Made by a program: the position numbers and the translations under genes. The notes under the pieces were generated by a model that worked only from the letters and a program-made list of their open reading frames with translations, made no database searches and was not told the DNA's origin. From a virus (taxonomy: Duplodnaviria; Caudoviricetes): 64,000 nt of DNA. The stretch spans positions 128,001-192,000 of IMG/VR virus record IMGVR_UViG_3300023283_000076. One strand, given 5' to 3'. Shown here piece by piece: positions 28,004 through 50,549 of the stretch. Within the stretch, counting starts at the first letter, position 1. Each line of letters begins with the position of its first letter.

Positions 28004-28049
28004 ATTTTTATAAATAATTTCACTTAAGTTCTGTAATTATTATACATGC

Positions 28050-28682
28050 ATGACAGAAACAATTAAAGACTTTGAAAAAGATGTTTCTGGGAAAGATATT
28101 TATCTTATTGGTGGGGGCACATCTTTTAACCCTGTTAATCATATACCATTGCTCCCTAAATCTCAAGTTATTTGCATAAATTCTGCGTTAGAAGATTTTG
28201 ATACCTGTTTGGCTGCCGTCTGGTTTGATGATTCTTGGATGAAAAAAAACATAAAACTATTAAAGGAAAAACGTCACCAATATGGTATAAAATTTAGTAG
28301 AAAGAATAAAAGATTATACACCAATGAAAGTCATGATTATATAGAACTTTTTAATTCTAGTACTAAAGATTTTAATGTTAAACGAGAAAAATATGACGTG
28401 TGTGGCAACAATACAGGTGCTTGTACTATCCACCTTCTTGATCAGTTAAAGACCAAAACAATATATCTGTTAGGCTTTGATTGCCGAGAAGAAAATGGAA
28501 ACTCTCATTATCATAATAGATATGGAAAATATGTTAAACAAAATTCTTTTAATAGAAGTTTTCTTCCTAATTTCGAACAATTGGCAAAACATATAACACA
28601 TTCTAGAGTGGTTAATTTATCTGAAAATACTAAAATAAAAAGTTTTAAACAGGGCAGAATAGAAAGTATTTTAAAAGTATAA
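28050..28682 (+). CDS. MptE/Maf (DUF115)-like nucleotide-sugar-related protein
   Basis: IYLIGGGTSF, ICINS, NTGACTIHL, IYLLGFD, SHYH. Confidence 0.6.
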   Translation: MTETIKDFEKDVSGKDIYLIGGGTSFNPVNHIPLLPKSQVICINSALEDFDTCLAAVWFDDSWMKKNIKLLKEKRHQYGIKFSRKNKRLYTNESHDYIELFNSSTKDFNVKREKYDVCGNNTGACTIHLLDQLKTKTIYLLGFDCREENGNSHYHNRYGKYVKQNSFNRSFLPNFEQLAKHITHSRVVNLSENTKIKSFKQGRIESILKV

Positions 28683-28685
28683 ATA
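28678..28685 (+). promoter_or_regulatory. T4-type late promoter TATAAATA
   Basis: Exact TATAAATA 24 nt before the 946 aa gene; also at 12802, 32579 (+) and 20828, 44565, 53066, 57756 (-). Confidence 0.65.
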
Positions 28686-28709
28686 GCTATATCAGGTTAT
28701 TTTATTTTA

Positions 28710-31550
28710 ATGGCAACAATACGATATAAATGCGACTCGTGCCTTCGAGAAATTGAATTATTGGAAAATAAGTCAGGTTTGACAACTCTATCCAATTGTA
28801 TTATAACTGAAAATTGCCGGGGTACATTATTTAGACAGCGAAGAACAAACCGATTACGTGTTGATACTAAGCAGAACATTATTAATCTAGAAGAAAATTT
28901 GCTGGACCGAAGAGAACGAAAAATATTTTTTCCCTTTTCCAAAAGTATCCCCTCCAAGCGTTGGGTAATAAATCATAATTTAGGGTCGTTTCCGGCAGTG
29001 TCAGTATTTGTTGAAATTGACGGCGGGACAAATATACGAGAAGCAGATAAATCTGAGTATATTAGAAAAGATATCAATAAAAATACTTTAGATATTTTAT
29101 TTGATAATAACCAAACAGGTAAAGTACATGCAGTATCTAGAAGTATTTCTGAACAAGATATCCCGCAAACTACATTTTTAGAAGATTCCATAAACATATC
29201 TCCTAATGGAACTCTTACTATTGCAGTTTTATCAAAAGCGTTCGGTAATGTTTCTACTGATATTGAAAACCCAATAAATGTAAAATTTGATGTATCATTA
29301 AAAGAGCCAAATGAAGAAGAGGTTTTTTGTATTGAAGAATTTAACGGCGGTTCACAATCACCATGGGCAGATTATCCAGCAATATCTTTCAGAAAACGTA
29401 GGAACTATATTGTTAAAGTTGCAAACTTGTTAGATCTTAAAGTGATACAAGAAAGATATGATTCTTTAAAAGACATTCCAGAGCTAACGGAATTTAAGTT
29501 TAATGGTATCAGTTATAATGGGTCTTCCTTTATGCCAATAAGATCTAAAAATGCTATATTGTTGCTTTCTTCGCCTCCGTATACCAAATCTGATAAAATA
29601 GTAGATCGAATCATAGATTTAGGGGAGCGTAATGTTCAGGAAAATGGGAAAAAATATATATTTTCAGGGGGTGAATTGTTGGGGTTAAATGATGATATCG
29701 AGACAGTTTATCCACCAATAGAAGAAGATGATATTCTTATACGCACGGATAATACTTTTGGGCCTACTCCTACTCCTCCCCCCACCGTAACGCCAACGCC
29801 ATCAGTATCTGCGAGTGTAACACCCACCCCAACGCCATCGATATCTGAGAGTGTTACTCCTACACCTAGTCCGACGCAGAGCAGTGGTTTCACTCCTACA
29901 CCAACATCTAGTCCGACGCCCAGTCCGACGCAGAGTAGTGGTTTCATTCCTACGCCCACGCCGACGCCGACACCAAGCGCCGAAGGGGTGTTAACCATAG
30001 ATGCTGCTAGTTCCGACGAAAAATCGTTGTCGTTAACATTGACCTCTCAAAGTCCTTTTGGGATCGCGTTCAGCCCTGATACCACTAAATTATTCATGGT
30101 TGGAAGTGACGAGGATGTAATGCAGTACAGTGTGGGTGATATTAACGACATCTCAACATTTAACTTTGACGAGTTAAAATTAAATGTACTTGATACAATG
30201 GTTGATCCGACAGACCTAGTTTTTTCTCCAAACGGGGATAAAGTATTTTTGATGGATCGTGACAATATATACCAATATTCTCCAGTTGATCCTAACAACG
30301 TAACTACATGGACTTACGATGGGTTATCGTTGGGGGTTTCAGCCGGTGCTAGAGGATTGACATTTTCTCCTGATGGGACAAAACTTTTTGTTGTGGGAAT
30401 CGCAACAGATAGTATAGAACAATTTAATATACCTAATGCAAGTGATATAACGACATGGTCAGATGATAATCTTAGCCTTTCGGTTGCGGCTCAAGAAGGC
30501 TCTCCCAATGCGGTGACATTTTCTCCTGACGGAACTAAAGCTTTTGTTTCTGGTTCTTTTTCTGGTTCTGCGTTACAGTATTCATCCTCTAATTTAAACA
30601 ATGTTTCAGAGTGGACTTACGACGGTGTTGCTTTTTCGATGAAATCAGAAATATCTACCCTACAACATATTATGTTCTCTCCGAGTGGTACAAAAATATT
30701 TGGGTTAGGAAATCAAGTAGATACTAATATAGATGGACTATTCCAATATGACGCAACGTTTCCTACTGATGCGTCTACTTGGAGCTATGATAATCTATTT
30801 TTCACCATGGGAGACATAACGTCAACTGCTAAAGGAATAGAATTTTCACCTGATTCATCTAAAATGTTCTTGGTCTCATCAAATAAAAATACTATATTAC
30901 AATTTTCTGTTCCAAATCCCAAGGATGTGGAAACTTGGAAATATGATGGTGTGTTTTTACCATCCGTTGAAGCACGTATGAGAACGATACGCTTTTCACC
31001 AGATAAATCAAAAGTATTTGTTTTAGGGGTAGATGGTGATGCAATTAATCAATATACTCCAATTGACCCAAATGACGTTACGTCATGGATATATGATAAT
31101 GTTAGTTTTTCAGTTTCCGCCCAAACTACTGAGCCACAAGATTTGTTTTTCTCTGCCGATGGTAGTAAGCTTTATGTTCTTGAAAGCAACACCGATTTCG
31201 GCAATGCAAGAAGAATTTTCCAATATTCTTCACCAGATGCAAATGATGTAACAACATGGTCTTATGATGGGAAAACGTTTCCACTTTTCGAACAAGATTC
31301 GTTCCCAACCTCTATCTATATACCAAAAAATGGAAATAAATTATTTATGTTAGGGTTGTCTACCGATGCAATTCATCAATATACTACGTTAGATAATAAT
31401 GATGTAGATACATGGTTTTATGATCAGGTAGTATTTTCTCTGCCATCGGGCAGTCAAAATGGGATGACATTTTCTCTTGATGAAACTAAATTTTTTATAG
31501 TAGATGATTTGAATACTAACGATAATATAACGCAATATTCAACATTCTAA
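28710..31550 (+). CDS. virion protein with PT/S linker and C-terminal beta-propeller repeats
   Basis: N-terminal CxxC...C...C domain, (PT)n linker near 29757-29990, then about ten repeats of FSPDG.K.F...I.QY...D..TW.YD. Confidence 0.75.
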   Translation: MATIRYKCDSCLREIELLENKSGLTTLSNCIITENCRGTLFRQRRTNRLRVDTKQNIINLEENLLDRRERKIFFPFSKSIPSKRWVINHNLGSFPAVSVFVEIDGGTNIREADKSEYIRKDINKNTLDILFDNNQTGKVHAVSRSISEQDIPQTTFLEDSINISPNGTLTIAVLSKAFGNVSTDIENPINVKFDVSLKEPNEEEVFCIEEFNGGSQSPWADYPAISFRKRRNYIVKVANLLDLKVIQERYDSLKDIPELTEFKFNGISYNGSSFMPIRSKNAILLLSSPPYTKSDKIVDRIIDLGERNVQENGKKYIFSGGELLGLNDDIETVYPPIEEDDILIRTDNTFGPTPTPPPTVTPTPSVSASVTPTPTPSISESVTPTPSPTQSSGFTPTPTSSPTPSPTQSSGFIPTPTPTPTPSAEGVLTIDAASSDEKSLSLTLTSQSPFGIAFSPDTTKLFMVGSDEDVMQYSVGDINDISTFNFDELKLNVLDTMVDPTDLVFSPNGDKVFLMDRDNIYQYSPVDPNNVTTWTYDGLSLGVSAGARGLTFSPDGTKLFVVGIATDSIEQFNIPNASDITTWSDDNLSLSVAAQEGSPNAVTFSPDGTKAFVSGSFSGSALQYSSSNLNNVSEWTYDGVAFSMKSEISTLQHIMFSPSGTKIFGLGNQVDTNIDGLFQYDATFPTDASTWSYDNLFFTMGDITSTAKGIEFSPDSSKMFLVSSNKNTILQFSVPNPKDVETWKYDGVFLPSVEARMRTIRFSPDKSKVFVLGVDGDAINQYTPIDPNDVTSWIYDNVSFSVSAQTTEPQDLFFSADGSKLYVLESNTDFGNARRIFQYSSPDANDVTTWSYDGKTFPLFEQDSFPTSIYIPKNGNKLFMLGLSTDAIHQYTTLDNNDVDTWFYDQVVFSLPSGSQNGMTFSLDETKFFIVDDLNTNDNITQYSTF

Positions 31551-32509
31551 ACACTAAATGGATATTTTATAGCTGGATGGGGATCGTAATCCTCTAAGGA
31601 AAAATCATCTACAGTAATATTATTGTTTTCTAATTCTTCTAAAGATTTAACGTCAGGTATTTTTAATATCGGTGATTTTTTGGGTTCTCTAGTTAATTGT
31701 TCCTTGAATAATTCGAATTGATCTTCGTATATATGAATATTGTTCATAAAATGATTAAAGGTTCCAGCTTTTAATCTCGTAATGTTGGCGACCAATTTTA
31801 ATAATAAACAATAACTTGCAATATTAAATGGTATGCCAATGGGAAAGTCACATGACCTTTGATAAAGCGTTAAATCAAGATGCTCGCCTACTATACTAAA
31901 ATTATATAGTAAATGACACGGAGGGAGCGCCATTTTATCTAAATCCGATGGGTTCCAATGGGTGACAATCAATCTTCTATTGTCATTACCTTTTTTAAGC
32001 TCTTGTATACAATTAGACAGTTGATCAATAGTTTTACCATCACTGCCCTTCCATCTTCTTGCCTGTACGCCATAAATTCTTCCAAGGTCATCTAATCCTT
32101 TCCTATTTGGGTTGTTTAACCATTGTTCATTTTCATTTGCATTCGCATCCCATATACTACAGCCCTCTTTTCTAAAATCTTCCGCGTTATCATATCCCTT
32201 TAGGAATCCTAAAAGCTCTGCAATTATGGGTTTTATGTTCATTTTTTTAGTAGTTAATATTGGAAATGCGTTTGTTCCTCTAAGATTGAATTTCATCATG
32301 TCCCCAATGTACACTAAACAATTTTTTCCGGTTCTTTTATTTTCGATCCATTGACCACAATTTATGATTTTTTTCCCTACGTTGATATATGTGTTGTCAA
32401 ATTTTTTTTGACATTTTTCTATTGGTGCTGGTGTTCCGTCCTTATTAATGCACTCTCTTCCGACTAAATAATAATCCATTTGAGTTGGGCATTTATTGTT
32501 TTTATCCAT
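31547..32509 (-). CDS. thyA: thymidylate synthase
   Basis: FPILTTKK, ELLGFL, IWDANA, LGRIYGVQ, MALPPCH, YQRSCD..IGIPFNIASY, HIYEDQ; restarted at MDKNNK. Confidence 0.95.
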   Translation of the reverse strand: MDKNNKCPTQMDYYLVGRECINKDGTPAPIEKCQKKFDNTYINVGKKIINCGQWIENKRTGKNCLVYIGDMMKFNLRGTNAFPILTTKKMNIKPIIAELLGFLKGYDNAEDFRKEGCSIWDANANENEQWLNNPNRKGLDDLGRIYGVQARRWKGSDGKTIDQLSNCIQELKKGNDNRRLIVTHWNPSDLDKMALPPCHLLYNFSIVGEHLDLTLYQRSCDFPIGIPFNIASYCLLLKLVANITRLKAGTFNHFMNNIHIYEDQFELFKEQLTREPKKSPILKIPDVKSLEELENNNITVDDFSLEDYDPHPAIKYPFSV

Positions 32510-32611
32510 AATTTTTTCCTTTTTGAAAATATATATCATTATTATACATCCATTTGAAGAACAACACAAGTGGAATAATATAAATATCATGTATAAAAAA
32601 CAACATGACTC

Positions 32612-35600
32612 ATGAAAGAAAGTTTAAATATAAGTTTTAACACTAATGTTCTAGTAACAGAGCATGATCCAGATAATCTCAACGGCCCGGGAAATGTTCT
32701 TTTAAACAAATCAAATGCGGTACATTCTCAGAATATGGCACGGGCCATTGCGCGAGCTTTAGCAAGAGAACCCAATTCATTTGTGCATCGAATAGCTTTT
32801 GGTAATGGAGGAAGCTTTACTGACGCTGGAGAAACCACCATAATCAATCCCCCTAATGATGGGACTAGGGGGGATGGATGGGAGTCACGTTTATACAATG
32901 AAACATATTCCGAAATTGTAGATGAGAGTAACGTCTTAGTTGGAACGGACCCGGGTTCATCTGGACCTAACTCGAATAGAATAGGCGGTGGGGCATCTCC
33001 TACTGATGATCCGGAGGGAACTGGTGTAGTATCATTAGAAGTTGGAAGAAAATCTAACATTATCGCCACAATGTTTATTAATCAAAACGAACCAATAAGC
33101 CAACTGGAACAATCAACGATAGATCAAGAAATTACTGCTGAACAAAAAGCGTTTGAGTTTGATGAATTAGGGTTTTATACAACAGGCCAACCCGCGTTGC
33201 CCACTCCTGCTACATCGTTAATAAATGTTGGAAATAAAACATCTGAAGATATTATTCCGTCTTCAATGCTAGGCAGTCAACTTATATTAAACTATGAAAT
33301 AAATGGAGAAGAGAAACAAACAGTTTTTATTGTTCCTAGTATAGGATCAGGCCCGGGGGGTGAAGTTACGTTCGGTGATCTAGCTGAGGGAATAAACACT
33401 GGAAGCTGGTTTTCAAGTAATCCCGGAGATGATAGTACCACATTAATTAAAGTAACCATAACAGATAGAACACCGGGGGCAGTATATCCCTCCATCGCGG
33501 GATCTGAAACTTTCGGATTTTTGGTGTTTGAAAATCTTGTTGCCGGGGAAGGTAACACGTTAAAGCTTAATTGTTCGGCAATTGGTTCTGATATGTTATT
33601 TGCCTTAACTGGAAATTGCACAAAAGTTGATACCTCTACTAATAATGGTATTGATAGTGGAGTTGCTAATGATGCTGCAAATCCAGTAAATGAACGAGAA
33701 AGACTATTAACTCATTTAACATTTTCGCCTATTTTAAAAAAAGAAAATAGAGTTATAAAAATTGTGTACACGTTAACAATTTCAGTATCCCAAACGGGGG
33801 ACTGTGTTCCTAATATTGAAAATGTACCACCACCGCCATCCCCTAGCCCAACACCGTCCGTATCTGAAAGTGCTACGCCTACACCGACGCCGAGCCCCAC
33901 CCAGAGTATGGGAATTACACCTACTCCTACACAGAGTATTGGAATTACGCCTACACCATCAATATCTGATAGTGCAACACCTACACCGACACCTACACCA
34001 AGTCCTAGTGTTGCAGAACCAATGGTATTAACTATGGATACCACCCTAAATCCCAGTGGTACTGATGTAACATTGCCGATGAAAGGACCGGGAGATGTTA
34101 CTGTTGACTGGGGTGACGGAACCATGGATAGTTTTAATAATTCTACCGTAGACAGCTTTTTACAGTTCGCTCCGCATACTTATTCAACTGATGGTGTGTA
34201 CACTATTATAATTAGTGGAACATTAAATAAATTTGGAGACCTCAATATATTTATGGGAGGAGTTGTAGCGGTTAGTTCTTTTGGTGAATTAGGTACTACA
34301 AGTTTAGGAGGGGCATTAAATAATGCGACAAATTTAAATACTTTACCTGATAATATTCCATCTACTGTTACTGATGTGTCAAACATGTTCTTCAATGCTT
34401 CCAGTTTCAATATTGATATAAACTCATGGGATGTCAGTAATGTTACTAATATGGAAAATATGTTCGAAAACGCAGAATCATTTAATCAACCTCTAAACAA
34501 TTGGAATGTTTCAAATGTTACTAGTATGCACGACATGTTTGATGACGCATCCGCTTTTAATCAAGATATAAGTACATGGGATACTTCTTCAGTTACAACT
34601 ATGGAAGGAATGTTCCAGTCTGCGCAATCGTTTAATCAGCCTTTAGACAGTTGGAATGTTGCGTCTGTTAATAATATGAGTACTATGTTTCAAAATGCAA
34701 ATTCTTTTAATCAGGATCTTCCAAATTGGGATGTATCAAATGTTACTGACATGACATGGATGTTTAATGGCGCGAATATGTTTAATGGCGATATAACAAC
34801 ATGGGATACCTCATCAGTTACTGATATGGGTACTATGTTCCAAAATACTCAAGCATTCAACCAAGACATTTCAGGGTGGGATGTTTCTAATGTAACTGAT
34901 ATGTCATATATGTTCTTCAATGCTACTGCATTCAATCAAAACTTAAGTAATTGGAATACTATAAGTGTAACCCTTATGAATGACATGTTTTCTGGTGCTA
35001 GTATTTTTAATGGAGATATTTCAGGATGGGATGTTTCTAATGTAACTGATATGTCATATATGTTCTTCAATGCTACTGCATTCAATCAAAACTTAAGTAA
35101 TTGGAATACTATAAGTGCAACCCTTATGAATGACATGTTTTCTGGTGCTAGTATTTTTAATGGAGATATTTCAACATGGGATGTTTCTAATGTAACTGAT
35201 ATGTCGTTTATGTTTTCGGGTGCGCTTGCATTTAATCAAAACTTAAATAATTGGAATACTATAAATGTTACTAACATGCGATGGATGTTTGAAAACACGC
35301 CTGTATTTAATGGCGATATAACAACATGGGATACCTCATCTGTTACTGATATGGGTACTATGTTTCAAAACGCTCAAGCATTCAACCAAGACATTTCAGG
35401 GTGGGATGTATCAAATGTTACGGACATGGCATTCATGTTCTTTGGTTCTTCTTTTAATCAAGATATAAGTACATGGGTACCTTCTTCCGTTACTACCATG
35501 CAATCTATGTTTGCAAGCTCTTCTTTTGATCAGAATATCAATTCATGGAATGTTTCAAGTGTTCAAAACATAAGATTCATGTTTGGCGACTCTTCATTTA

Positions 35601-38170
35601 ACCAACCATTAAATAACTGGGATGTATCAAATGTTACTAACATGAATGGTGTTTTTCAAGATAATTCAACATTTAACCAACCATTGAATAATTGGGTCAC
35701 TTCTAGTGTCACAGACATGTCATTTATGTTCCTAAACGCAACTACATTTGATCAAGATATTTCAGGGTGGAATGTACTTAATGTTACTACTATGGAAGAA
35801 ATGTTTAAAAATGCAGCATCATTTAACCAAGAATTGAACAATTGGAATGTTTCTGGTGTATCGGTCATGCAGTCTATGTTCCAAGGTGCGGTATTATTTA
35901 ATCGACCATTGGGTAATTGGGATGTCTCTAATGTAACTGATATGAGTTTTATGTTTGATGGCGCATCCGCTTTTAATCAAGATATAAATTCATGGGTAAC
36001 TTCTTCAGTTACAACAATGAGAACGATGTTTCAGAATGCTGATGCATTTAATCAAGATCTTTCAAATTGGAATGTATCGAATGTCACAGACATGGCGTTC
36101 ATGTTCTTTGGAGCAGATATCTTTGATGGTGACATAACAACATGGACTACTTCATTGGTTACTACAATGGAAAGCATGTTCCAAAATGCAACATCGTTTA
36201 ATCAGAATTTATCAGGGTGGGATGTTTCAAATGTCACCAACATGCAAGAAATGTTTGAAGATTGTACTAATTTCAATGGAGATGTTAGCACTTGGGACGT
36301 ATCATCTGTTACCACCATGGAAAGAATGTTCGAAAACACTGAATCGTTTAATCAAGATTTAAGTTCATGGACACCAATATCTGTTACTACTATGGAAAGA
36401 ATGTTTGATAATGCAAGTGCATTTAATGGTAATGTTACGACATGGGATACATCATCTGTCACTAATATGAGAACTATGTTTCAAGATACTTTATTATTTA
36501 ACCAAGATATTTCAGGGTGGGATGTATCGAATGTTACTGACATGTCATTCATGTTCTTTAATTCTTCTTTCAATCAAGATATAAGTACATGGATACCCTC
36601 TTCCGTTACTGCCATGCAATCTATGTTTGGAAACTCCTCTTTTGATCAAAATATTGATTCGTGGGATGTTTCAAGTGTGCAAAACATAAGATTTATGTTT
36701 GGAAATTCTTCATTTAATCAACCATTAAATTCATGGGACACATCTTCTGTTGTTGACATGGGTGCTGTTTTTGAGAATAATTCAACATTTAACCAACCAT
36801 TGAATAATTGGGTCACTTCTAGTGTCACAGACATGTCATTTATGTTTAATGGGGCAAGTGCCTTTGATGGTGATGTTACTACATGGGATACGTCATCTGT
36901 CACTAATATGAGAGTCATGTTTCAAAATGCTGGAGCGTTTAATCAGGATATCTCGAATTGGAATGTAGAAAATGTTACTGACATGGAATTTATGTTTTGG
37001 AGTGCTTCAGTATTTAATCAAGATTTGAGTGGATGGTGTGTTACTAATATAACTTCAGAGCCTAATGGTTTTAGTGATAATACACCGTTAACAGCCGCTA
37101 ATAAGCCAAATTGGGGTACATGCCCAACACCTACGCCTACGCCGACTCCATCAGTATCTGAAAGTGCTACACCTACACCTACGCCGTCAGTATCTGATAG
37201 TACTACACCCACGCCTACACCTACACCGACTCCGTCGGAGCCGACAGAGCCAGCATCTCTTACTGTGTTCAGTGGGGCGCGAGATAACACTGTACGCAAG
37301 ATCGATCCGTCAACCATGACTCAAGTGGGGTCCAGTTTTACGGGGCATAGCAGTTGGGTGTTTGCATTAGCCTTTGGCACTGACGGGAATTTGTACAGTG
37401 GGTCGATAGACGACACTGTTCGCAAGATTGACCCGTCAACCATGACCCAACTGGGTTCCAGTTTTACGGCACCGGATATTGTGAATGCATTAGCCTTTGG
37501 TACCGACGGATACTTATATAGCGGGTTGAGTGATCAGACTGTTCGCAAGATTGACCCGTCAACCATGACTCAAGTGGGGTCCAGCTTTACAGGGCATACG
37601 GCTCTAGTGAACGCATTAGCCTTTGGTACAGATGGATACTTATATAGTGCATCTAATGACTTGACAGTTCGCAAAATTGATCCTTCGACCATGACGCAAG
37701 TCGGATCAAGCTTTGCGGATCACACTGTTTCAGTAAATGCATTAGCTTTTGGTACGGATGGATACTTATATAGTGGAGGCTGGGACGACACCGTTCGCAA
37801 GATTGATCCTTCGACCATGACTCAAGTAGGATCAAGCTTTACAGGACATACGGATAATTTGATCGTATTAGCTTTTGGTACCGATGGGAACTTATACAGT
37901 GGTTCGCATGATAGCACTGTGCGTAAGATTGACCCGTCAACCATGACTCAAGTAGGATCAAATTTTGTAGCCCCAGATCGTGTGCTTTCATTGGCATTTG
38001 GTACTGATGAGAATTTATATGTTGGCACGCAAGACGACACCGTCCACAAGGTTACCCCATCAGATATGACTCAGGTGGGATCCACTTTTGTAGCACATAC
38101 TGCTCGCGTACAGGCGTTAGCTGTAGATAAGAACATCACTGAAATGATTTTAGAGGCTACGCCGCCATAA
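32612..38170 (+). CDS. 1852 aa baseplate/tail-associated protein with DUF285 (BspA-like) repeats and WD40-like propeller
   Basis: N-terminal structural domain (NAVHSQNMA, AFGNGG, LYNETY, FDELGF, LLTHLTFSPI), PT linker, about 36 repeats of FNQDIS.WDVSNVT.M..MF, PT linker, seven 41-42 aa repeats. Confidence 0.85.
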   Translation: MKESLNISFNTNVLVTEHDPDNLNGPGNVLLNKSNAVHSQNMARAIARALAREPNSFVHRIAFGNGGSFTDAGETTIINPPNDGTRGDGWESRLYNETYSEIVDESNVLVGTDPGSSGPNSNRIGGGASPTDDPEGTGVVSLEVGRKSNIIATMFINQNEPISQLEQSTIDQEITAEQKAFEFDELGFYTTGQPALPTPATSLINVGNKTSEDIIPSSMLGSQLILNYEINGEEKQTVFIVPSIGSGPGGEVTFGDLAEGINTGSWFSSNPGDDSTTLIKVTITDRTPGAVYPSIAGSETFGFLVFENLVAGEGNTLKLNCSAIGSDMLFALTGNCTKVDTSTNNGIDSGVANDAANPVNERERLLTHLTFSPILKKENRVIKIVYTLTISVSQTGDCVPNIENVPPPPSPSPTPSVSESATPTPTPSPTQSMGITPTPTQSIGITPTPSISDSATPTPTPTPSPSVAEPMVLTMDTTLNPSGTDVTLPMKGPGDVTVDWGDGTMDSFNNSTVDSFLQFAPHTYSTDGVYTIIISGTLNKFGDLNIFMGGVVAVSSFGELGTTSLGGALNNATNLNTLPDNIPSTVTDVSNMFFNASSFNIDINSWDVSNVTNMENMFENAESFNQPLNNWNVSNVTSMHDMFDDASAFNQDISTWDTSSVTTMEGMFQSAQSFNQPLDSWNVASVNNMSTMFQNANSFNQDLPNWDVSNVTDMTWMFNGANMFNGDITTWDTSSVTDMGTMFQNTQAFNQDISGWDVSNVTDMSYMFFNATAFNQNLSNWNTISVTLMNDMFSGASIFNGDISGWDVSNVTDMSYMFFNATAFNQNLSNWNTISATLMNDMFSGASIFNGDISTWDVSNVTDMSFMFSGALAFNQNLNNWNTINVTNMRWMFENTPVFNGDITTWDTSSVTDMGTMFQNAQAFNQDISGWDVSNVTDMAFMFFGSSFNQDISTWVPSSVTTMQSMFASSSFDQNINSWNVSSVQNIRFMFGDSSFNQPLNNWDVSNVTNMNGVFQDNSTFNQPLNNWVTSSVTDMSFMFLNATTFDQDISGWNVLNVTTMEEMFKNAASFNQELNNWNVSGVSVMQSMFQGAVLFNRPLGNWDVSNVTDMSFMFDGASAFNQDINSWVTSSVTTMRTMFQNADAFNQDLSNWNVSNVTDMAFMFFGADIFDGDITTWTTSLVTTMESMFQNATSFNQNLSGWDVSNVTNMQEMFEDCTNFNGDVSTWDVSSVTTMERMFENTESFNQDLSSWTPISVTTMERMFDNASAFNGNVTTWDTSSVTNMRTMFQDTLLFNQDISGWDVSNVTDMSFMFFNSSFNQDISTWIPSSVTAMQSMFGNSSFDQNIDSWDVSSVQNIRFMFGNSSFNQPLNSWDTSSVVDMGAVFENNSTFNQPLNNWVTSSVTDMSFMFNGASAFDGDVTTWDTSSVTNMRVMFQNAGAFNQDISNWNVENVTDMEFMFWSASVFNQDLSGWCVTNITSEPNGFSDNTPLTAANKPNWGTCPTPTPTPTPSVSESATPTPTPSVSDSTTPTPTPTPTPSEPTEPASLTVFSGARDNTVRKIDPSTMTQVGSSFTGHSSWVFALAFGTDGNLYSGSIDDTVRKIDPSTMTQLGSSFTAPDIVNALAFGTDGYLYSGLSDQTVRKIDPSTMTQVGSSFTGHTALVNALAFGTDGYLYSASNDLTVRKIDPSTMTQVGSSFADHTVSVNALAFGTDGYLYSGGWDDTVRKIDPSTMTQVGSSFTGHTDNLIVLAFGTDGNLYSGSHDSTVRKIDPSTMTQVGSNFVAPDRVLSLAFGTDENLYVGTQDDTVHKVTPSDMTQVGSTFVAHTARVQALAVDKNITEMILEATPP
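34320..37060 (+). repeat. coding tandem array of 75-nt (25 aa) DUF285 units
   Basis: Includes a near-exact 150-nt tandem (units beginning 34880, 35030, 35180) and a longer block duplicated near 35380 and 36490. Confidence 0.9.
37260..38130 (+). repeat. seven near-identical propeller-blade repeats
   Basis: TVRKIDPSTMTQVGSSF...ALAFGTDG.LYSG repeated with high nucleotide similarity. Confidence 0.9.
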
Positions 38171-38203
38171 AGTATGCTTGTAAAACAAATTAGGCACATG
38201 TTC

Positions 38204-39832
38204 TTAAGTTGAATATGTGTTTTCTACTCTTTCACCTTTACTATAATGTGATATTCTATGATGTGTGATCGGTGATGCTAATAGACATCCAACTTTAAGT
38301 TTATCCTCTCGTATTGCAATTTGAGCTTCGGCCATCAAAGAGCTTTCTGCCATTCTTTTGTGTTTGTAGCAATATTTAATAAATTTAGCATTCCCATTTT
38401 TGCTAAAGAGTATAGGCCAATTACAATAAAAGTACTCTCCTATATTATATGCTAGACCTCGATAACAATTACTATAAAATATTTTAGTTCTTATTTCTGG
38501 AACCTCTTTATTTTTAAGAAATTTTTCTTTCCTATTGGGATCTAAATTATACCATGCCCAGTTAGTATGATTATTCCCAAAGAATTCTGAAAATGACAGT
38601 TTTAAATAATCTAATTCATTTTCTTCTAGTATAGAGATTGCTTTATCGAATAAATCCTCGTCATATTTTTTAAAACCAGCATCACATATTTTCCCCTTTT
38701 CTTGTTGTTTATTAATCAACATATCGTCTTCAAAAAAAACCATATAAGAATGTGTTGATTTGGCAAAATGCTCAGCAGCATATTGTCTTCCCCCGGTAAT
38801 TCCTATATTGTTGAATTTATATTCTGTTAAATCGTATTCTTTTGTTATTTTGTCATATTCATTTTGAAGTTCTTTTTTAGTTGAATTATTTAATAAGTAT
38901 TTCGGAGATTTCTTAAAATCTTCGGGGAAAGTTTCTTTAAATCTAGATAAACATTCTATCAACTGTTTGGGTGCATTAAAAGTCAAAAAATACAATGCCA
39001 ACTTATCGTCGCTTTCTTGTTTTCGATTTTTCACTTTTTCAAAATATGAATTAATTAGTCCATTGGGCTCTATCATTTGAATATTAAATAAATGTTTATT
39101 AGTATAACTTATGATAGTGAATACAGACTCCTCAGTTCCCATATAACCCTGTTTTAATGTTTCGTTGAGTGTTCGGTAATATACATCATTAACCTTGTTT
39201 ATAGCTTCTTTGGTGCCCCCGAAGAAGCCACCTCTACATACATATTTGGTGTCTGTTCCAGCAAACCGGTTCATTCCTTCTTTTTTAAATCCATGAACTT
39301 CATTTTGTCCATCATATGGGAATGCTAGATACAACATTTTGTTCTTTTTAACATCTTCTATAAGTTTTTTGTCAAATTGATTAACACTAAAATATGATTG
39401 TATATTGACGGTATTACTTATTCCAGCGTCTATCCAAAAGAAATATCTGGAATCGAAGAAATTATTTAATGAGCTATCATTAAGTTTAAATTGCTTGGAC
39501 ATTACTAGTGGATTATAATATTCCAATTTTGCTTGGGGACTTTGTTCTAGCCACCCTGCTTGTGAATACCATTCTTTATTATTTCTTATTTTATCTGTTA
39601 AACCTTTAAATGGAAAATCAATATTTCGTAACATTACTTTTGTATTTTCCGGGCTTCGGTGTTTCCATACAAAATCTGAAACTTCTTTATCGCAATAAAC
39701 CACTAAATTAATATCCTGATCCAACAATTTTTTAAACGCTTCGAGGTACTGATTCATAGACCGTTTAAAATTATCTTTTAGATTATCTCGGTTCAAATTA
39801 TATAATGCAGTAACAAAAGTTATATCATTCAT
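38204..39832 (-). CDS. two-domain glycosyltransferase (WlaTC/HtrL-like plus GT-A)
   Basis: ITFVTALY, YNPLVMSKQF, FFWIDAG, RGGFFGG, MGTEES; second domain FFEDDM. Confidence 0.75.
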   Translation of the reverse strand: MNDITFVTALYNLNRDNLKDNFKRSMNQYLEAFKKLLDQDINLVVYCDKEVSDFVWKHRSPENTKVMLRNIDFPFKGLTDKIRNNKEWYSQAGWLEQSPQAKLEYYNPLVMSKQFKLNDSSLNNFFDSRYFFWIDAGISNTVNIQSYFSVNQFDKKLIEDVKKNKMLYLAFPYDGQNEVHGFKKEGMNRFAGTDTKYVCRGGFFGGTKEAINKVNDVYYRTLNETLKQGYMGTEESVFTIISYTNKHLFNIQMIEPNGLINSYFEKVKNRKQESDDKLALYFLTFNAPKQLIECLSRFKETFPEDFKKSPKYLLNNSTKKELQNEYDKITKEYDLTEYKFNNIGITGGRQYAAEHFAKSTHSYMVFFEDDMLINKQQEKGKICDAGFKKYDEDLFDKAISILEENELDYLKLSFSEFFGNNHTNWAWYNLDPNRKEKFLKNKEVPEIRTKIFYSNCYRGLAYNIGEYFYCNWPILFSKNGNAKFIKYCYKHKRMAESSLMAEAQIAIREDKLKVGCLLASPITHHRISHYSKGERVENTYST

Positions 39833-40626
39833 ATATCAAGTTCCTTGATGATTTTGTTGTACGGTAAATTGTAATAATTGTAATATATACCTATAACTTC
39901 ACCTTTTACAATGTTTTTAGGATTATTATATCCGGCTTTAGCTAATGAAATTCCCAGTTCGTAACTTTCTCCCCACGATACACAATCACTTTTTTGTAAT
40001 ATATAATTCAATCTTCTTAGTTCACTTGCAAACAACTCTATTTTATTATTTTCGTTTTTTAATATAAAAAAATGTTCACTGGGTAACCCTACGTTATAGG
40101 GGTCTGGAGGATTTTCTTTTTTTCCATACACTCGTTTTTTATGATTATATATTGAGTGTTCTCTATCCCATTCTTGACCTAGTGTATCTCCCATTCTTGC
40201 ACCAACCATATCGTATTCGCCTTTTATAAGTGTTTCATATATGAAATTTTCGTTTTCGTCTGTTAGTTCTAATGCACAATCGCAATCTATAAAAAAGACG
40301 ATATCATACTGTTCTATGTTGGGGATATTTTCAAAACATAGAAATTTTAAAGTACAATTGAATTTTTTAGGGCCATTGATTGCTCTTAAACGTTCTTCAT
40401 GTTCTGGGATATCAGTGAAAATCTTTAAATCTTTTGTGATATTATTACGCGATTTTACTCTATTAGATCGTATAATATCTTCTGGTTTGTTAGTCGATAC
40501 TAGTATATCGTGATTTGTTGTTGATAATAGAGAGGTTATTAATTGATTGCAATATTTTATATACCGTTTGTCATTTGTTTGATCGATACATAATAAAGTG
40601 AATAATATTTTATACCTTTTAGTCAT
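39829..40626 (-). CDS. GT-A fold glycosyltransferase-like
   Basis: VFFIDCD, SEHFF, WGESYELG. Confidence 0.6.
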   Translation of the reverse strand: MTKRYKILFTLLCIDQTNDKRYIKYCNQLITSLLSTTNHDILVSTNKPEDIIRSNRVKSRNNITKDLKIFTDIPEHEERLRAINGPKKFNCTLKFLCFENIPNIEQYDIVFFIDCDCALELTDENENFIYETLIKGEYDMVGARMGDTLGQEWDREHSIYNHKKRVYGKKENPPDPYNVGLPSEHFFILKNENNKIELFASELRRLNYILQKSDCVSWGESYELGISLAKAGYNNPKNIVKGEVIGIYYNYYNLPYNKIIKELDI

Positions 40627-40641
40627 ATTTTATCTAATGAT

Positions 40642-41448
40642 TTATGTTTGTATTATAAAATACCGGTCGTCTTCCATGAATTTTGTATCATTTAATGGAC
40701 AGGTATTTAGTATAGTTTCAATAACATTATTTATTAAGTTTTTATCAGGTTTCCAGTATGAATTTTGTTTTTCCGCTTGTTCTAATTTGCCGTAAAACAT
40801 GGGAGACTCTGGTGAATCATGTTTCCAAACACTATAATAATCGGCAAATTTTATACCATCTCCTACTAAACTGTCATCATAATGCAATGGTATTGCAGGT
40901 ATTTCATATGCATGGGCTACAATGAGGCCGTGAAGTGTAGTAGAAATAATTTTTTTACATGATACAACCTCATCAATATATTTTTCAAATTTTAACCCAT
41001 GTGAGGTGCTTGGGTCAATAATTTTATATTCTAGATTTTTTTCTTTTATTTCGTTAGCAATTTTTGTGAAATGAATTTGGTGTGGTATTATGCCAATATC
41101 ATATTGTTTGGCGGTAGAATTTGGAACATAAAAATGTGGTAGGGCAATTGCTGGGTCCCCCCATGGTAAGTCTGAATAATTTGTATTTTGTTCAGTATAT
41201 TTTCCTCGTACTAAATCATATATTGCTCGGGGTTCGAGTTTTGTATTTTTTTCTATAATACCGCTTCCCCAAACCCTAGTATTTGGTTTAGCGCCAATTC
41301 CTGCAATTGACCCAGTAGAAATTATTTTAAACTCTTCATGATGATGGGCCCATACATAAGGTATTTTCCATTTATTTAACATGTACGGAAATACACAATC
41401 TCCAAAATTTGAAGCATTTACAAAATTAGCTTTAAGTATTCTTTTCAC
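40642..41448 (-). CDS. polysaccharide pyruvyl transferase family protein
   Basis: NFGD, STGSI, VWGSG, VRG..T, GDPA, IGIIPH, STTLHGLIVAHAY.IP. Confidence 0.85.
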   Translation of the reverse strand: MKRILKANFVNASNFGDCVFPYMLNKWKIPYVWAHHHEEFKIISTGSIAGIGAKPNTRVWGSGIIEKNTKLEPRAIYDLVRGKYTEQNTNYSDLPWGDPAIALPHFYVPNSTAKQYDIGIIPHQIHFTKIANEIKEKNLEYKIIDPSTSHGLKFEKYIDEVVSCKKIISTTLHGLIVAHAYEIPAIPLHYDDSLVGDGIKFADYYSVWKHDSPESPMFYGKLEQAEKQNSYWKPDKNLINNVIETILNTCPLNDTKFMEDDRYFIIQT

Positions 41449-41474
41449 TTTTTATATATTAGCCTATAGACGTA

Positions 41475-43127
41475 TTATTTATGTTTATATTCATATACTT
41501 TATTTCCACAATCCCATATTCGCAAAAATCTATTGGCTAACATATTCTCATACTCTGAAAGACTAGGATCAAATTCCTCCAAGAGACCCTCAAGCTTATG
41601 TTTTTGATACTTATTTCGAGATTCTAGAATGCGTTCTTTGGGTTTAAAGTATTTATAATTTGGTGCGGATTGGCCAATTAATCTAAATCCATTCTTTTCA
41701 TATATACTACCATCAAAAAATGCAATATCACAGTAAGATATCACACTATTAAAAGAATTGTTTTCTTTAAAGTGCGTCATTAATTTAGGAAATGCTCCGT
41801 TAACTATGGTTCCTTTTCTGTTGGCAAATCGACATAACTCGAAATCGTGATTTTTAGAAAATCTCGGCTTAGAAAATGTCATTACTGATACTAATTCGTT
41901 ATTGTGTAGCAACCCGTACCGTATTTTTCCTTGGAATGTATTACCTTGTAAATGATTTAAATCTAAAAAATTTTTACTTTCGGTAGGAGTAAGTTCTACT
42001 ACTTTACATTTCCTTGCTGCCACAGTTTCTCTGGCTTTTCCAAGCCTAATGGATATCAAACTTTTAATTATATCATGTTTAAATTCCCAATCATATTCTG
42101 ATATATGAATTAGAGAATAGCCTTTTTCATTAACTGCTTTAGTTTTTTTAAGATGATAGTTCTTATGTTTATACAAATCACAGTGCCAGAATAGTCCATT
42201 ACACTCTATAGCAAGCTTTTTACTAGGAATCACTATATCTAATTCCATCGGAGCTATTAACCTTCTATCCGATTTAATTGTGTTAAGCCCAAGTTCATCG
42301 ACAAAATCAGCAATTTCAATTTCAAAATCGCTCGATTTCGACAACAAAGTTTTTAATTTTTGAATATTAGATAATAGTCGGGTTTCAATGTAACCGTCTT
42401 TGGTTTTTATGGTTATGGGTTTGTGGACCCCTTCATACTCTTCTTCTTTGCTTAATAGTTCTCCTCCCTTGGACTCTACCAATTCTTTTACCACGGAATA
42501 TGACAGACGCTGATTTTCACGTCTTTTTTGTAAACAATATTCTTTTGAATATAACTTTTGTTGCTTGCGTATATATGAAATCTTTTTTTTCTCTCTTACG
42601 CCGTCAATCGTCTCTACTAAAAGAGGAGCATCCCATCCATTATATTCTGTTGACAGTAATTTACCGCCACGCATTTCAACTTCTTTTTTTATTTCGTTTA
42701 AGGTGGGTTTACTACCTCTAAGAGAAAGGGATTCACTTTGTGGCGATAGTTTTCCTAGTTTTCTTATACTATTTCTTATACTAGTCCACGTTCTTTCATT
42801 AATTTCACCGTTTGGAAATTGTATTTTGATTGGAGTGATATCGTTTACGTATGTTTTACTAACAAGTTTAACGTTATAATCTTGTAATTTTTTCTTTATT
42901 TTTTTCAGAGATTTTTCTCTCTTTGAATCTGAAAGACTTTTTATCTGTTCTGGTTTGGGTTTTAATGTTTTTGTTTTTCGTATATTCACCAGTTTTCTGG
43001 TTTCAATATTATCTCCTATTTTTATCAACAAGTCTTGATGGACTCCATTATATTCAGTTGACAAAAGTTCCCCACCTTTCGATTTTATTATTTCATCTAC
43101 TTCACCAATTGTCAACTTTTGGGGCAT
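41475..43127 (-). CDS. Hef-like homing endonuclease with N-terminal repeats
   Basis: Four (K)GG.LLS..Y repeats, ELDIVIPSKKLAIECNGLFWH nuclease core, ARKC...FLDLNHLQG...ELCRFA...RIWDCG tail. Confidence 0.75.
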   Translation of the reverse strand: MPQKLTIGEVDEIIKSKGGELLSTEYNGVHQDLLIKIGDNIETRKLVNIRKTKTLKPKPEQIKSLSDSKREKSLKKIKKKLQDYNVKLVSKTYVNDITPIKIQFPNGEINERTWTSIRNSIRKLGKLSPQSESLSLRGSKPTLNEIKKEVEMRGGKLLSTEYNGWDAPLLVETIDGVREKKKISYIRKQQKLYSKEYCLQKRRENQRLSYSVVKELVESKGGELLSKEEEYEGVHKPITIKTKDGYIETRLLSNIQKLKTLLSKSSDFEIEIADFVDELGLNTIKSDRRLIAPMELDIVIPSKKLAIECNGLFWHCDLYKHKNYHLKKTKAVNEKGYSLIHISEYDWEFKHDIIKSLISIRLGKARETVAARKCKVVELTPTESKNFLDLNHLQGNTFQGKIRYGLLHNNELVSVMTFSKPRFSKNHDFELCRFANRKGTIVNGAFPKLMTHFKENNSFNSVISYCDIAFFDGSIYEKNGFRLIGQSAPNYKYFKPKERILESRNKYQKHKLEGLLEEFDPSLSEYENMLANRFLRIWDCGNKVYEYKHK

Positions 43128-43133
43128 AATTAA

Positions 43134-44537
43134 TCATCCGTCTACGTTTTTAGTAACCTTATCTAACCATCCATTAGATTTACTATGAGGCCACACAGTA
43201 TACGTGCTTGGGGCTATGCTTGACAAGAAGATAAACCTATAATCAATAAATCCATTGTCACCAGTTACATATTTTTTAAATTCTGGTCCTGATAAATCTT
43301 TTCTATGTATTTCATTACCATCTGCATCATGTGCACCAACAAAGCAAAAGTCTATGTCATCCAATACTTTACTATTATTAAATATCGAAGGAAATTCGTT
43401 CTTGTGTGTGCATATTCTTACATCATTAGAACGGGCAAATGAGTCTTTCCATTCTTGTTCATTATTATATGGATAATTAACTGGGGGTTCTTCTTGATCT
43501 AATGTAGGTTGCTGTACGCCTCTATGTTCAAAACTAATACCAGCATACTCCTCATATTGTCGTAATGTTCTTTCATTACCAAAGCCATATTTCCCAAAAT
43601 CAATTTGATTGGGGTCTTCGCCGTCCATTCCAAACAAAATTCTATTTCTTTTATGACACATATTATTTCTTTCTACCCAATCCTTTTCTACGTTGCCTTT
43701 CTTTTTATTTATAGTTGTGTGGTCATCCCATACTTTGGTTCTACCTTTTCTGGTATATTCGTGCCATATCAATAACTTATGTGGTGTAAACAAATCATAT
43801 CCATGCGTATATGCCCTAGTAGCTATTGAGATTTCTTCTCCATGAAAAAAATAATATGGATCATGTTGCACATCTTCTGCAAACGATCCATCAGCGAAGC
43901 AAAAATGGCCAGAGTAAAATCTAGCACGTTGAGGTTTATCACGCTCTTTCCAATTTTTCATTTCAGATGGTATAAAGAACACTGCACCTTCTGGTATAAA
44001 CCTATCAAAGTTTGTTTGCCATGGTATTTGTACTCTTCCATTAGGATCATTTTCAGGGTTATATGATGGAATGTACCCTGTTAAAATAGGTTTCGGTGTT
44101 TTTGTAGTTCTAACACTTTCTAACAGTTCTATTAATTCTTTATCCCAATTTTCTATAAATCTATGATGGGAATCTAGTTGTAGAGTATATTTTTCTTTGT
44201 TATATTGTTGTTGAATTAAATTTCTAGCCCAGCATGTCCCTTTAGTTTCTGTATAATGTAAATCTATAAGATTAACATATGCATTATCCTTCATCAATTC
44301 TATAATATTAAATTCTTTATCTTTTCCATCAATGTCGGTACATTCATATACTCGATATCCTTGTATATCATAGCCTTGATCTAAAAAATCGTCTATGGAT
44401 TGCTCATCACCATGTTGCCAATTTACTACTACATGTAAATTTTCCGGGTGTGCGCTGTTAGATATCAAACTTTTTAGCGTGGGTATAAGTTCTGGATCTC
44501 TGTAACTTGCTATTTGAACAAATATAGTGTTTTTCAT
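43134..44537 (-). CDS. GT60-type polypeptide GlcNAc transferase
   Basis: IFVQIASYRDPEL, GTCWARN, LQLDSHHRF..WD, FYSGHF, FHGEE...RA.THGYD. Confidence 0.85.
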   Translation of the reverse strand: MKNTIFVQIASYRDPELIPTLKSLISNSAHPENLHVVVNWQHGDEQSIDDFLDQGYDIQGYRVYECTDIDGKDKEFNIIELMKDNAYVNLIDLHYTETKGTCWARNLIQQQYNKEKYTLQLDSHHRFIENWDKELIELLESVRTTKTPKPILTGYIPSYNPENDPNGRVQIPWQTNFDRFIPEGAVFFIPSEMKNWKERDKPQRARFYSGHFCFADGSFAEDVQHDPYYFFHGEEISIATRAYTHGYDLFTPHKLLIWHEYTRKGRTKVWDDHTTINKKKGNVEKDWVERNNMCHKRNRILFGMDGEDPNQIDFGKYGFGNERTLRQYEEYAGISFEHRGVQQPTLDQEEPPVNYPYNNEQEWKDSFARSNDVRICTHKNEFPSIFNNSKVLDDIDFCFVGAHDADGNEIHRKDLSGPEFKKYVTGDNGFIDYRFIFLSSIAPSTYTVWPHSKSNGWLDKVTKNVDG

Positions 44538-44574
44538 AATATTCGGGTTTCCATAATTTCGATTTATTTATATT

Positions 44575-44604
44575 AAAAAAGGGAGGTTGAATTCCTCCCT
44601 TTTA
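44575..44604. terminator. intrinsic terminator
   Basis: A6-GGGAGG-TTGAATT-CCTCCC-T4. Confidence 0.7.
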
Positions 44605-44630
44605 GCGTAACAATAAATATTTTTTATTAA

Positions 44631-49125: not shown

Positions 49126-49163
49126 TGTTTCCGTTATCTTATTGATTGTGACATTATACAGGC

Positions 49164-50114: not shown

Positions 50115-50549
50115 TTTATAGTTTCCTCTTATGGTTTTTTGTTTATCTTTTTTATAATCTAATTCCCAAACTGTTCGGTATCACTCTTTAAAAGTTATGA
50201 AAATATCTTTTTCTGACAGTTCTGCTGCTTTTATAGTAATAAATTTACCGTTTCTTTCTACTACAAGAGAATGATCTTCTGTTACAGTTACTTCTTTTCC
50301 ATTATCTAATGTTATTTTATATAATGGTTTTTTAACTTTATGTCTATATACAGTAAGTACTTGTTTAGTTATCTTTTTCTTTTGTTCTGGGTTATAACAT
50401 GGCGAAAAGTATTCATCATTATTGAATTTAATAATTTGTTTGTTGTTCTTATCAGTAAACACTCCATGCTTGTCGGAAAGATAATCAAACCAATTTTCTA
50501 TTGTTTCATTTTTACCATTTATAGTTATTATAGAATCTTTTGTAACACT
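49974..50549 (-). mobile_element. split intein (IntN 50184-50549, IntC 49974-50114)
   Basis: Inserted in YGDTD|S; Ser1, TxxH block B, terminal His-Asn, Ser+1; stop codon and new start between halves; no intact endonuclease. Confidence 0.88.

Follow-up and report, generated by a model that had tools for sequence, protein, structure and literature searches.

The window analysed here is a stretch of 64,000 nucleotides (bases 128001-192000) from a 270,653 bp record of an uncultured jumbo phage (IMG/VR IMGVR_UViG_3300023283_000076; Duplodnaviria, Caudoviricetes), whose genome has a CheckV completeness of 79% and a G+C content of ∼33%. It contains a five-gene operon that is headed by a putative polypeptide N-acetylhexosamine (HexNAc) transferase of glycosyltransferase (GT) family GT60 and that lies beside the genes of two large proteins with long linkers rich in proline, threonine and serine (PT linkers; Table 1). 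We judge it fairly probable that these genes form a phage-encoded cytoplasmic system for mucin-type protein O-glycosylation that acts on the linkers. Glycosylation of the linkers by the phage had been proposed in an initial annotation of this DNA. The proposal is favoured by the co-occurrence of enzyme and linkers across phages, by a replicate of this association in bacterial type VI secretion system (T6SS) loci, by the fold predicted for the GT60 enzyme and by Schiff-positive bands of the cultured phage XacN1, whereas two of its parts, a Maf/MptE-like gene and an oxygenase-fold gene, found no support. A megablast comparison of window positions 28000-45000 with cultured phages returned zero matches.

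The GT60 enzyme, its cassette and the linker proteins

The five genes are tightly packed on the minus strand and converge on the gene of the 1852-residue linker protein. Their order is GT60, a 550-residue homing endonuclease, a 268-residue pyruvyl-transferase-like protein, a 265-residue GT8/GT6-fold protein and a 542-residue two-domain glycosyltransferase, and no membrane segments are predicted in any of the five products. The initial annotation had placed GT60 and the further sugar genes directly downstream of the linker proteins; the genes are present, but they stand on the opposite strand and are convergent rather than downstream. The two additional glycosyltransferases that it listed correspond to the 265- and 542-residue proteins, whereas its pyruvyl transferase is only marginal and the endonuclease had escaped notice.

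The GT60 protein matches PF11397 with 259.9 bits (cut-off 21), residues 4-337 aligning with profile positions 1-351 of 352, and the match was reproduced on the genome record. It consists of a GT-A catalytic domain (residues 1-∼365) and a conserved β-rich C-terminal domain (residues ∼367-464), the latter visible in an alignment of 24 GT60 homologues and confidently modelled. A metal-binding-type motif, D122-S123-H124, is invariant among these homologues. A phmmer search of PDB sequences gave no match to any solved chain and a comparison of folds was therefore needed, for which an AlphaFold model was used (predicted local distance difference test score, pLDDT, of 84). The top 29 of the 50 structural matches listed are all GT27 polypeptide N-acetylgalactosaminyltransferases (ppGalNAc-transferases; Z scores of 17.3-20.5), with ∼260-300 residues superposed at 3.6-4.3 Å; the next families are LARGE1, B4GALNT1, K4CP and SpsA (Z ≤ 16.6). 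The model is consistent with a GT-A enzyme that carries a D-x-H/D-x-D motif and is akin to GT27. The absence of a C-terminal targeting domain is said to set GT60 apart from GT27 (PMC8724618), and the phage protein departs from that description by its β-rich domain, which leaves the features of the catalytic domain unaffected.

GT60 enzymes of protists initiate mucin-type O-glycans with N-acetylglucosamine (GlcNAc) on Ser/Thr-rich domains and also modify a hydroxyproline of Skp1 in the cytoplasm (PMC8724618, PMC6939170); the known acceptors of GT60 and GT27 enzymes are Thr/Ser/Pro-rich tracts (PMC8724618). The phage enzyme has in common with the protist enzymes (the pp-αGlcNAcTs of Dictyostelium and T. 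cruzi, and Gnt1) the PF11397 domain, the GT-A fold, the D-x-H motif and Thr/Ser/Pro-rich candidate acceptors, and the cytoplasmic setting resembles that of Gnt1 acting on Skp1 hydroxyproline. Unlike them, it is encoded by a phage, bears the additional C-terminal domain and is paired with a two-domain glycosyltransferase. With GT27 (PDB entries 2d7i, 2ffu and 8ujg) the proposed system shares the D-S-H metal motif and dense Thr/Pro acceptor tracts, but GT27 enzymes act in the Golgi lumen, possess a ricin-type lectin domain and use UDP-GalNAc as donor. Both hallmarks of a mucin-type system, an initiating polypeptide HexNAc-transferase (here by family and predicted fold) and dense Thr/Ser/Pro acceptor tracts, are found in the window.

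The conserved partner of GT60, the 542-residue protein, is modelled as two GT-A domains (pLDDT of 87). Its N-terminal domain (residues 1-267) is HtrL_YibB/GT6-like, with Z scores of 13.1-13.8 to BoGT6a/GTA, and matches HtrL_YibB (PF09612) over residues 3-251 with 54 bits against a gathering score of 24.1; judged by its profile scores, the protein is a distant member of this family, far under the NCBIfam equivalog cut-offs. The C-terminal domain (residues 274-541) resembles inverting GT-A enzymes (B4GALNT1, Z of 15.8; also GnT-I and POMGnT1) and contains an invariant E368-(D369)-D370 motif in the alignment. A whole-chain Foldseek search led to enzymes with two glycosyltransferase domains (E values of 1e-10 to 1e-7). 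LH3, the E. coli K4 chondroitin polymerase, LARGE1, the P. multocida heparosan synthase 2 and Mimivirus R699 likewise combine two GT-A domains in one chain, but the whole-chain TM-scores to these proteins are just 0.22-0.31 and the identities 8-11%, and a polymerase activity is not implied.

The 265-residue protein, for which Pfam gives nothing, has TM-scores of 0.60-0.71 to GT8 and Nucleotid_trans clusters in the Atlas, and its homologues recur as a variable family within the GT60 cassettes of related phage loci. The match of the 268-residue protein to PF04230 (27 bits; cut-off 25.3) covers only profile positions 207-279 of 280, the C-terminal part; a homologue in the closest related locus, L006, is 53% identical and reaches 38.8 bits over positions 126-280. 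The endonuclease gives weak Vsr/MTES_1575 nuclease matches and has a Vsr-like nuclease core. It is absent from L006, and homologues occur in four related loci at the same and at other positions; since copies are found both at the shared site and elsewhere in L009, L012 and L013, the gene is evidently mobile among phages of this group.

Translation and a composition scan recovered the three long Pro/Thr/Ser linkers that had been noted in two late-promoter proteins, at the positions first assigned to them. The 946-residue protein has one linker between an N-terminal domain and β-propeller-like repeats, and the 1852-residue protein has two, which flank 12 DUF285 repeats and precede a WD40 propeller. 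The N-terminal domain of the latter belongs to phrog_11259 (3e-79), a family without known function, and is 46.5% identical to ORF329 of XacN1, the last gene of the XacN1 baseplate operon. That of the 946-residue protein matches phrog_30556 weakly, again a family without known function, and no homologues of this protein were found in the 83 related loci described below. Neither N-terminal domain matched a Pfam or NCBIfam family or gave a significant PDB sequence match; both may serve as virion anchors. A whole-genome scan found seven open reading frames (ORFs) with PT linkers, four of which lie within ∼35 kb of the cassette. Apart from the two large proteins, the PT proteins of the genome are in the tail/baseplate region; beyond the 1624-residue candidate acceptor that runs past the end of the window, a 3396-residue baseplate-region protein carries two more PT linkers and is a further candidate. 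The codon pattern for TPTxTPT occurs 14 times in the genome against none for the reversed pattern, far above chance.

The T4-type late-promoter word TATAAATA stands 32-41 nt upstream of the start codons of the GT60 gene, the genes of both linker proteins and a 210-residue gene, and is not found upstream of the ribonucleotide reductase (RNR), thymidylate synthase (TS), family-B DNA polymerase (PolB) or RNase H genes. The window contains 20 copies against ∼18 expected, which is no over-representation. Because 12 of these 20 are placed 32-47 nt before ORF starts, including those of enzyme and linker genes, late co-expression of the enzymes with the linker proteins is likely.

The cassette and PT linkers in phages and bacteria

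Related loci were found with the 24-sequence GT60 alignment; a single-protein query yielded only two. The family is very large, with at least 556 IMG/VR stretches; more than 7,500 GT60 homologues were detected at E ≤ 1e-10, and the best 120 of them are 54-88% identical, many on contigs of 100-345 kb. The comparison set consists of 83 phage loci, 81 from IMG/VR together with the cultured phages XacN1 and Xoo-sp13. In 74-79 of the 83, GT60 is joined by its two-domain partner; the two genes then invariably share a strand, are separated by 0-6 kb and occur in either order, and in some loci they overlap by 28 nt. Between them stand variable genes for GT25, GT10-like, GT7C/GT2 and PLOD-type glycosyltransferases, DUF3431 proteins, short HtrL paralogues, carbamoyltransferases and pyruvyl transferases, and the flanks are conserved only within subclades. 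This arrangement is that of an island for glycan synthesis in which initiator and extender are fixed and the middle is exchangeable; because the middle is swapped freely, each phage probably makes a somewhat different glycan.

In XacN1 the cassette (ORF334-ORF330) comprises a GT60 orthologue, ORF334, that is 59.6% identical to the protein of the window and a two-domain partner that is 47% identical, and it lies, as here, between replication genes and an ORF329-type domain. Its middle differs, with a carbamoyltransferase, a short HtrL paralogue and ORF331 in place of the homing endonuclease, pyruvyl-transferase-like and GT8-like proteins. Schiff staining of XacN1 virions revealed at least two positive bands, for which the proteins were not named, and the authors proposed ORF328 and ORF334 as the makers of these glycoproteins (PMC5852040). 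The same paper did not tie the enzymes to PT linkers; it called only ORF328 and ORF334 glycosyltransferases and left ORF330 as hypothetical. ORF328 (locus L001, 23281-23949, minus strand) is a 'GT9' glycosyltransferase in the baseplate operon, between the 3313-residue ORF325 and ORF329, and has no counterpart in the window.

Co-occurrence of the cassette with PT linkers across jumbo phages had been suggested as a check on the proposal, and it is seen. PT-rich linkers were found in 108 ORFs that lie no more than 10 kb from GT60, spread over 56 of the 83 loci. In the 73 non-redundant loci the share of such ORFs falls with distance from the cassette, from 22% for the adjacent gene to 16, 8 and 7% at distances of two, three and four genes and 3.4% at five or more (53/279 at distances of one and two against 21/622 at five or more; p = 6e-14), while such a linker is missing from all 332 ORFs that the cassettes themselves contain. 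The neighbouring PT proteins fall into 53 unrelated clusters.

Whole genomes give the same picture. All eight GT60-positive jumbo genomes examined hold 14-90 TPTxTPT patterns (90, 19, 16, 21 and 43 in five complete IMG/VR genomes, 51 each in XacN1 and Xoo-sp13, and the 14 of the present phage), with 0-1 for the reversed pattern, and the count is zero in eight GT60-negative phages (Atu_ph07, SCTP-2, RaK2, GAP32, phage G and three large IMG/VR phages). Sampling was also reversed, starting from IMG/VR contigs of at least 23 kb that were hit in scans for (TP)5, (AP)5 or (GS)5: PF11397 is present on nine of 42 (TP)5 contigs, two of them with divergent copies, and on none of 65 (AP)5 or (GS)5 contigs (p = 1e-4). 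The divergent genes lie at 25603-26160 of G021, a complete 108-kb IMG/VR phage (E of 1e-21), and at 13893-14558 of G018 (E of 2.5e-12). Since these two are smaller and unrelated-looking, the association may extend beyond the jumbo-phage assemblage.

A second and independent setting is provided by Burkholderiales chromosomes, in which GT60 orthologues with 43-49% identity lie in T6SS clusters (TssF, TssG, TssA, TssM), two to three genes from VgrG. At their C-termini the VgrG spikes near GT60 carry (PT)n tracts that exceed 100 residues (residues 823-952 in L445 and 726-827 in L447); in L447 a protein with RHS repeats stands between VgrG and GT60. Counted over those 74 of 80 bacterial loci that yielded the GT60 ORF, and with ORF calls that are crude in high-G+C DNA, PT ORFs make up 24 of 394 at distances of one to three genes against two of 426 at five or more (p = 2e-6). 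As in the phages, an orthologous enzyme lies beside a phage-tail-like protein with a PT tract that is assembled in the cytoplasm; the loci differ in being chromosomal and in that the two-domain partner was not found in them. The position of VgrG-(PT)n two to three genes from GT60 suggests that these T6SS spikes are glycosylated. Bench work on T6SS GT60 enzymes beside VgrG was not found in the literature.

Table 1. Features of the GT60 cassette, the proposed acceptors and their surroundings. Positions refer to the window except where a locus is named; residue numbers are those of the translated proteins.
Feature	Position	Strand	Basis and remarks
GT60-family polypeptide HexNAc-transferase-like enzyme, 467 aa	43134-44537	-	first operon gene; PF11397, 6e-77
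TATAAATA motif of GT60 gene	44565-44572	-	35 nt upstream of start codon, just after terminator-like hairpin
Two-domain glycosyltransferase, 542 aa	38204-39832	-	conserved GT60 partner; PF09612, 54 bits
GT-A-fold protein (GT8/GT6 or Nucleotid_trans type), 265 aa	39829-40626	-	cluster c20; Atlas structure matches
Pyruvyl-transferase-like protein, 268 aa	40642-41448	-	putatively glycan-decorating; PF04230, marginal; weak CsaB match
Homing endonuclease, 550 aa	41475-43127	-	inserted, not a glycosyltransferase; phrog_559, 1e-104; phrog_3339, 6e-97
Late protein, 946 aa	28710-31550	+	N-terminal domain, PT/PS linker, β-propeller-like repeats; proposed acceptor
PT/PS linker 1	29754-29984	+	residues 349-425 of 946-aa protein; translation and composition scan
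TATAAATA motif of 946-aa gene	28678-28685		position relative to gene start
Late protein, 1852 aa	32612-38170	+	N-domain (residues 5-397), PT/PS linker, 12 DUF285 repeats, PT linker, WD40 propeller; proposed acceptor
PT/PS linker 2	33818-34021	+	residues 403-470 of 1852-aa protein; translation and composition scan
PT/PS linker 3	37112-37273	+	residues 1501-1554 of 1852-aa protein; translation and composition scan
TATAAATA motif of 1852-aa gene	32579-32586		position relative to gene start
3' part of 1624-aa gene	62874-64000	-	PT linker, candidate acceptor; runs beyond window end; whole-genome scan
Late gene, 210 aa	28050-28682	+	weak MptE-like/'sialyltransferase' resemblance, membership doubtful; PF01973 sub-threshold; phrog_4603, 8e-23
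Oxygenase-fold gene	52406-53026	-	cluster c29; weak phrog_61 match, 1e-6
Thymidylate synthase	31547-32590	-	canonical, between the two large proteins; PF00303, 298 bits; not part of the system
VgrG spikes with (PT)n tails, Ralstonia and Paraburkholderia	L445:12270-15134; L447:15078-17567	-	inside T6SS cluster

Weighing of alternative substrates and neighbouring genes

Several points weigh against glycosylation of the linkers by the cassette. A glycan on the PT linkers is deduced, and the Schiff-positive bands of XacN1 are not assigned to proteins; the virion location of both large proteins is drawn only from promoter motifs and synteny, and that TATAAATA serves this phage as a late promoter is read from its position alone. 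The co-occurrence counts ignore kinship, and most GT60-positive phages belong to one broad jumbo assemblage that perhaps shares a linker style. HtrL/YibB, GT25, pyruvyl- and carbamoyl-transferases are usually enzymes of polysaccharide or lipopolysaccharide (LPS) synthesis. In several clades the cassette adjoins the DNA polymerase or other replication genes. XacN1 ORF329, the homologue of the N-domain of the 1852-residue protein, has no PT linker although it lies beside the same cassette, so the relation between neighbours is not always based on a linker. In another GT60-positive subclade (L034:13348-16158 and the neighbours of cluster c3, e.g. L045:7245-8114), the cassette is followed by a PT-linker protein with a 'peptidase' family domain (phrog_16701) and then by DNA polymerase; PT-linker neighbours are thus not always obviously structural.

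These observations leave room for other substrates. The cassette could glycosylate virion or other phage proteins elsewhere than at the PT linkers, for instance on the surfaces of capsid, sheath or tail tube; the PT linkers would then merely reflect a shared style of flexible linker. The unassigned XacN1 bands, ORF329 and the possible part of shared ancestry in the co-occurrence would fit this, as would the mycobacteriophages, whose capsid and tail-tube subunits bear glycans at their C-termini (Freeman et al., 2023, cited in PMC12619734). We nevertheless regard it as quite unlikely, in view of the steep adjacency gradient across 53 unrelated clusters, the recurrence of GT60 beside VgrG-(PT)n in T6SS loci, where a capsid is absent, and the Thr/Ser/Pro-rich nature of the established GT60/GT27 acceptors. 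Modification of PT tracts on proteins outside the virion (injected, secreted, intracellular phage or host proteins), with an effect on the physiology of infection, would accommodate neighbours such as the phrog_16701 'peptidase' beside DNA polymerase as well as the deduced nature of the virion location; it is hard to square with the late promoters and adhesin-type repeats (DUF285 and WD40 here, SprB in relatives) of the PT proteins, with the location of the other PT proteins of the genome in the tail/baseplate region and with the glycoproteins of XacN1 virions, and we think it decidedly improbable.

Two further readings look away from phage proteins. The enzymes might make or alter a glycan of the host surface (LPS core, capsule or exopolysaccharide), for instance to block superinfection or the sticking of progeny to debris, in keeping with the enzyme types typical of LPS and polysaccharide loci and with the polymorphic glycosyltransferase clusters of jumbo cyanophages, which were interpreted as host-surface modifiers (PMC7824862). 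We hold this to be very unlikely: such synthesis would require priming on a lipid carrier and an export machinery, but the cassettes examined showed no lipid-carrier primer, flippase, polymerase or exporter, the encoded proteins lack membrane segments, the first and universally conserved enzyme is of the polypeptide type, the phage is lytic and the promoter of late type, and the association with PT linkers and T6SS spikes would be left unexplained. Glycosylation of a hydroxylated pyrimidine in the phage DNA (T-even, RB69/DLP3 or 5mYOX-linked type) would suit variable cassettes in an arms race with restriction and the nearby replication and nucleotide genes (RNR, TS, PolB, RNase H, NUDIX and a deoxyribosyltransferase-like gene), and phage DNA glycans may hold several sugars built by GT-A and GT-B enzymes (10.1101/2023.12.21.572611). 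It seems barely credible, because a hydroxylated base is required. The TS changes diagnostic for hydroxylated pyrimidines are N177D, L143D/E or D169N (PMC13326640), whereas the sole TS copy in the genome keeps the canonical equivalents of E. coli L143, D169 and N177; searches of the 79%-complete genome for Tet_JBP (PF12851) and C5-methyltransferase (PF00145) were negative, and BssHII, NaeI and SpeI cut XacN1 DNA (PMC5852040). The late-type promoter also argues against DNA as substrate, as does the fold of GT60, whose closest resemblance is to polypeptide transferases; TarP, which among solved structures comes nearest to phage DNA GT-A enzymes, falls outside the 50 matches listed (Z < 14.9). 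The DNA reading was rejected.

Two genes that the initial annotation had drawn into the system were not retained. The 210-residue protein, described as MptE/Maf-like, scores 19.5 bits against PF01973, under the cut-off of 34.6, finds only unnamed viral clusters in the Atlas and has a counterpart near GT60 in just one of the 83 loci. Neither NeuB nor a CMP-sugar synthetase was found in the phage genome searched, although the host could supply the donor; a nonulosonic-acid (Maf-type) route for this gene was set aside and its membership left doubtful. The oxygenase-fold gene had been offered as a possible source of hydroxyproline, with the caveat that its metal ligands look degenerate, and the caveat proved correct. 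The HxD...H iron triad is missing in all 11 family members, with no His at HxD and an unconserved distal His, so that the protein cannot supply hydroxyproline and this route was rejected. The protein is probably a pseudo-enzyme kept beside the polymerase genes under a late promoter. Hydroxyproline is not needed in any case, because Thr and Ser are abundant in the linkers, and with no active prolyl hydroxylase present these residues are the likely acceptors of GT60.

Some details of the surrounding genes may be recorded. In its called form the TS ORF carries 66 extra hydrophobic residues at the N terminus, and this extension overlaps the promoter TATAAATA of the 1852-residue gene (window 32480-32612); the true start is probably an internal Met, which would give an ordinary divergent intergenic region. 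The PolB gene is split (window 48382-52340, minus strand), with an intein splicing domain at the end of a 719-residue ORF and the remainder in the next ORFs. A 298-residue protein of the replication region (window 53083-53979, minus strand) contains a nucleoside 2-deoxyribosyltransferase-like domain (PF15891, 3e-32).

Proposed pathway and implications

For the proposed glycosylation of PT linkers, we infer the donor sugar, the acceptor residues, the place of the acceptors in the virion and the purpose of the modification, which may be stiffening, protection from proteases or masking of the surface. Late in infection, a single transcript starting from TATAAATA upstream of GT60 would give rise to soluble enzymes. 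GT60 would add the first HexNAc, most likely GlcNAc from host UDP-GlcNAc, to Thr or Ser of TPxP-like linkers, the targets being the 946- and 1852-residue proteins together with PT-linked tail or baseplate arms encoded elsewhere in the genome. The two-domain glycosyltransferase, with its GT6-like and inverting GT-A domains, and the GT8-like enzyme would lengthen the glycan, which the pyruvyl-transferase-like enzyme would then decorate, a place that is taken by the carbamoyltransferase in XacN1. It is also conceivable, though on the unlikely side, that the two-domain transferase, in its build similar to LARGE1, chondroitin polymerase and heparosan synthase, polymerises a repeating disaccharide on GT60-primed linkers, yielding proteoglycan-like appendage fibres, with T6SS spikes decorated likewise. 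On this reading the swapped middle genes would endow every phage with a distinct 'glycan serotype', possibly affecting its host range, adsorption or evasion of proteases from the host and the environment.

A role in virion glycoproteins was already proposed for ORF328 and ORF334 by the XacN1 authors in 2018 (PMC5852040), and phage-encoded glycosylation of virion proteins is established in mycobacteriophages (Freeman et al., 2023, cited in PMC12619734). There, as proposed here, phage glycosyltransferases act on the virion proteins of the phage itself; the description in PMC12619734 mentions neither GT60 nor PT linkers nor a hypervariable cassette, and its glycans are those at subunit C-termini mentioned above. 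The literature searched held no prior description of GT60 in phages or of mucin-like or O-glycosylated phage linkers. Relative to it, a mucin-type, GT27-like initiator, its fixed two-domain partner and the hypervariable middle of the cassette appear to be new, as does the statistical association with Pro/Thr linkers in phages and with T6SS spikes.

Mucin-type O-glycosylation is generally seen as a process of the eukaryotic Golgi. To our knowledge, glycosylation of phage-particle proteins has been demonstrated at the bench in only a few phages, namely mycobacteriophages, and is hinted at for XacN1. Cultures exist of XacN1, Xoo-sp13 and two Stenotrophomonas phages, so that the system can be tested directly. 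If the proposal is correct, a cytoplasmic mucin-like pathway would be widespread in bacterial viruses and apparently also present in T6SS spikes, and it could bear on virion stability, host recognition, the recognition of therapeutic phages by the immune system and the way in which jumbo-phage proteomics is interpreted.

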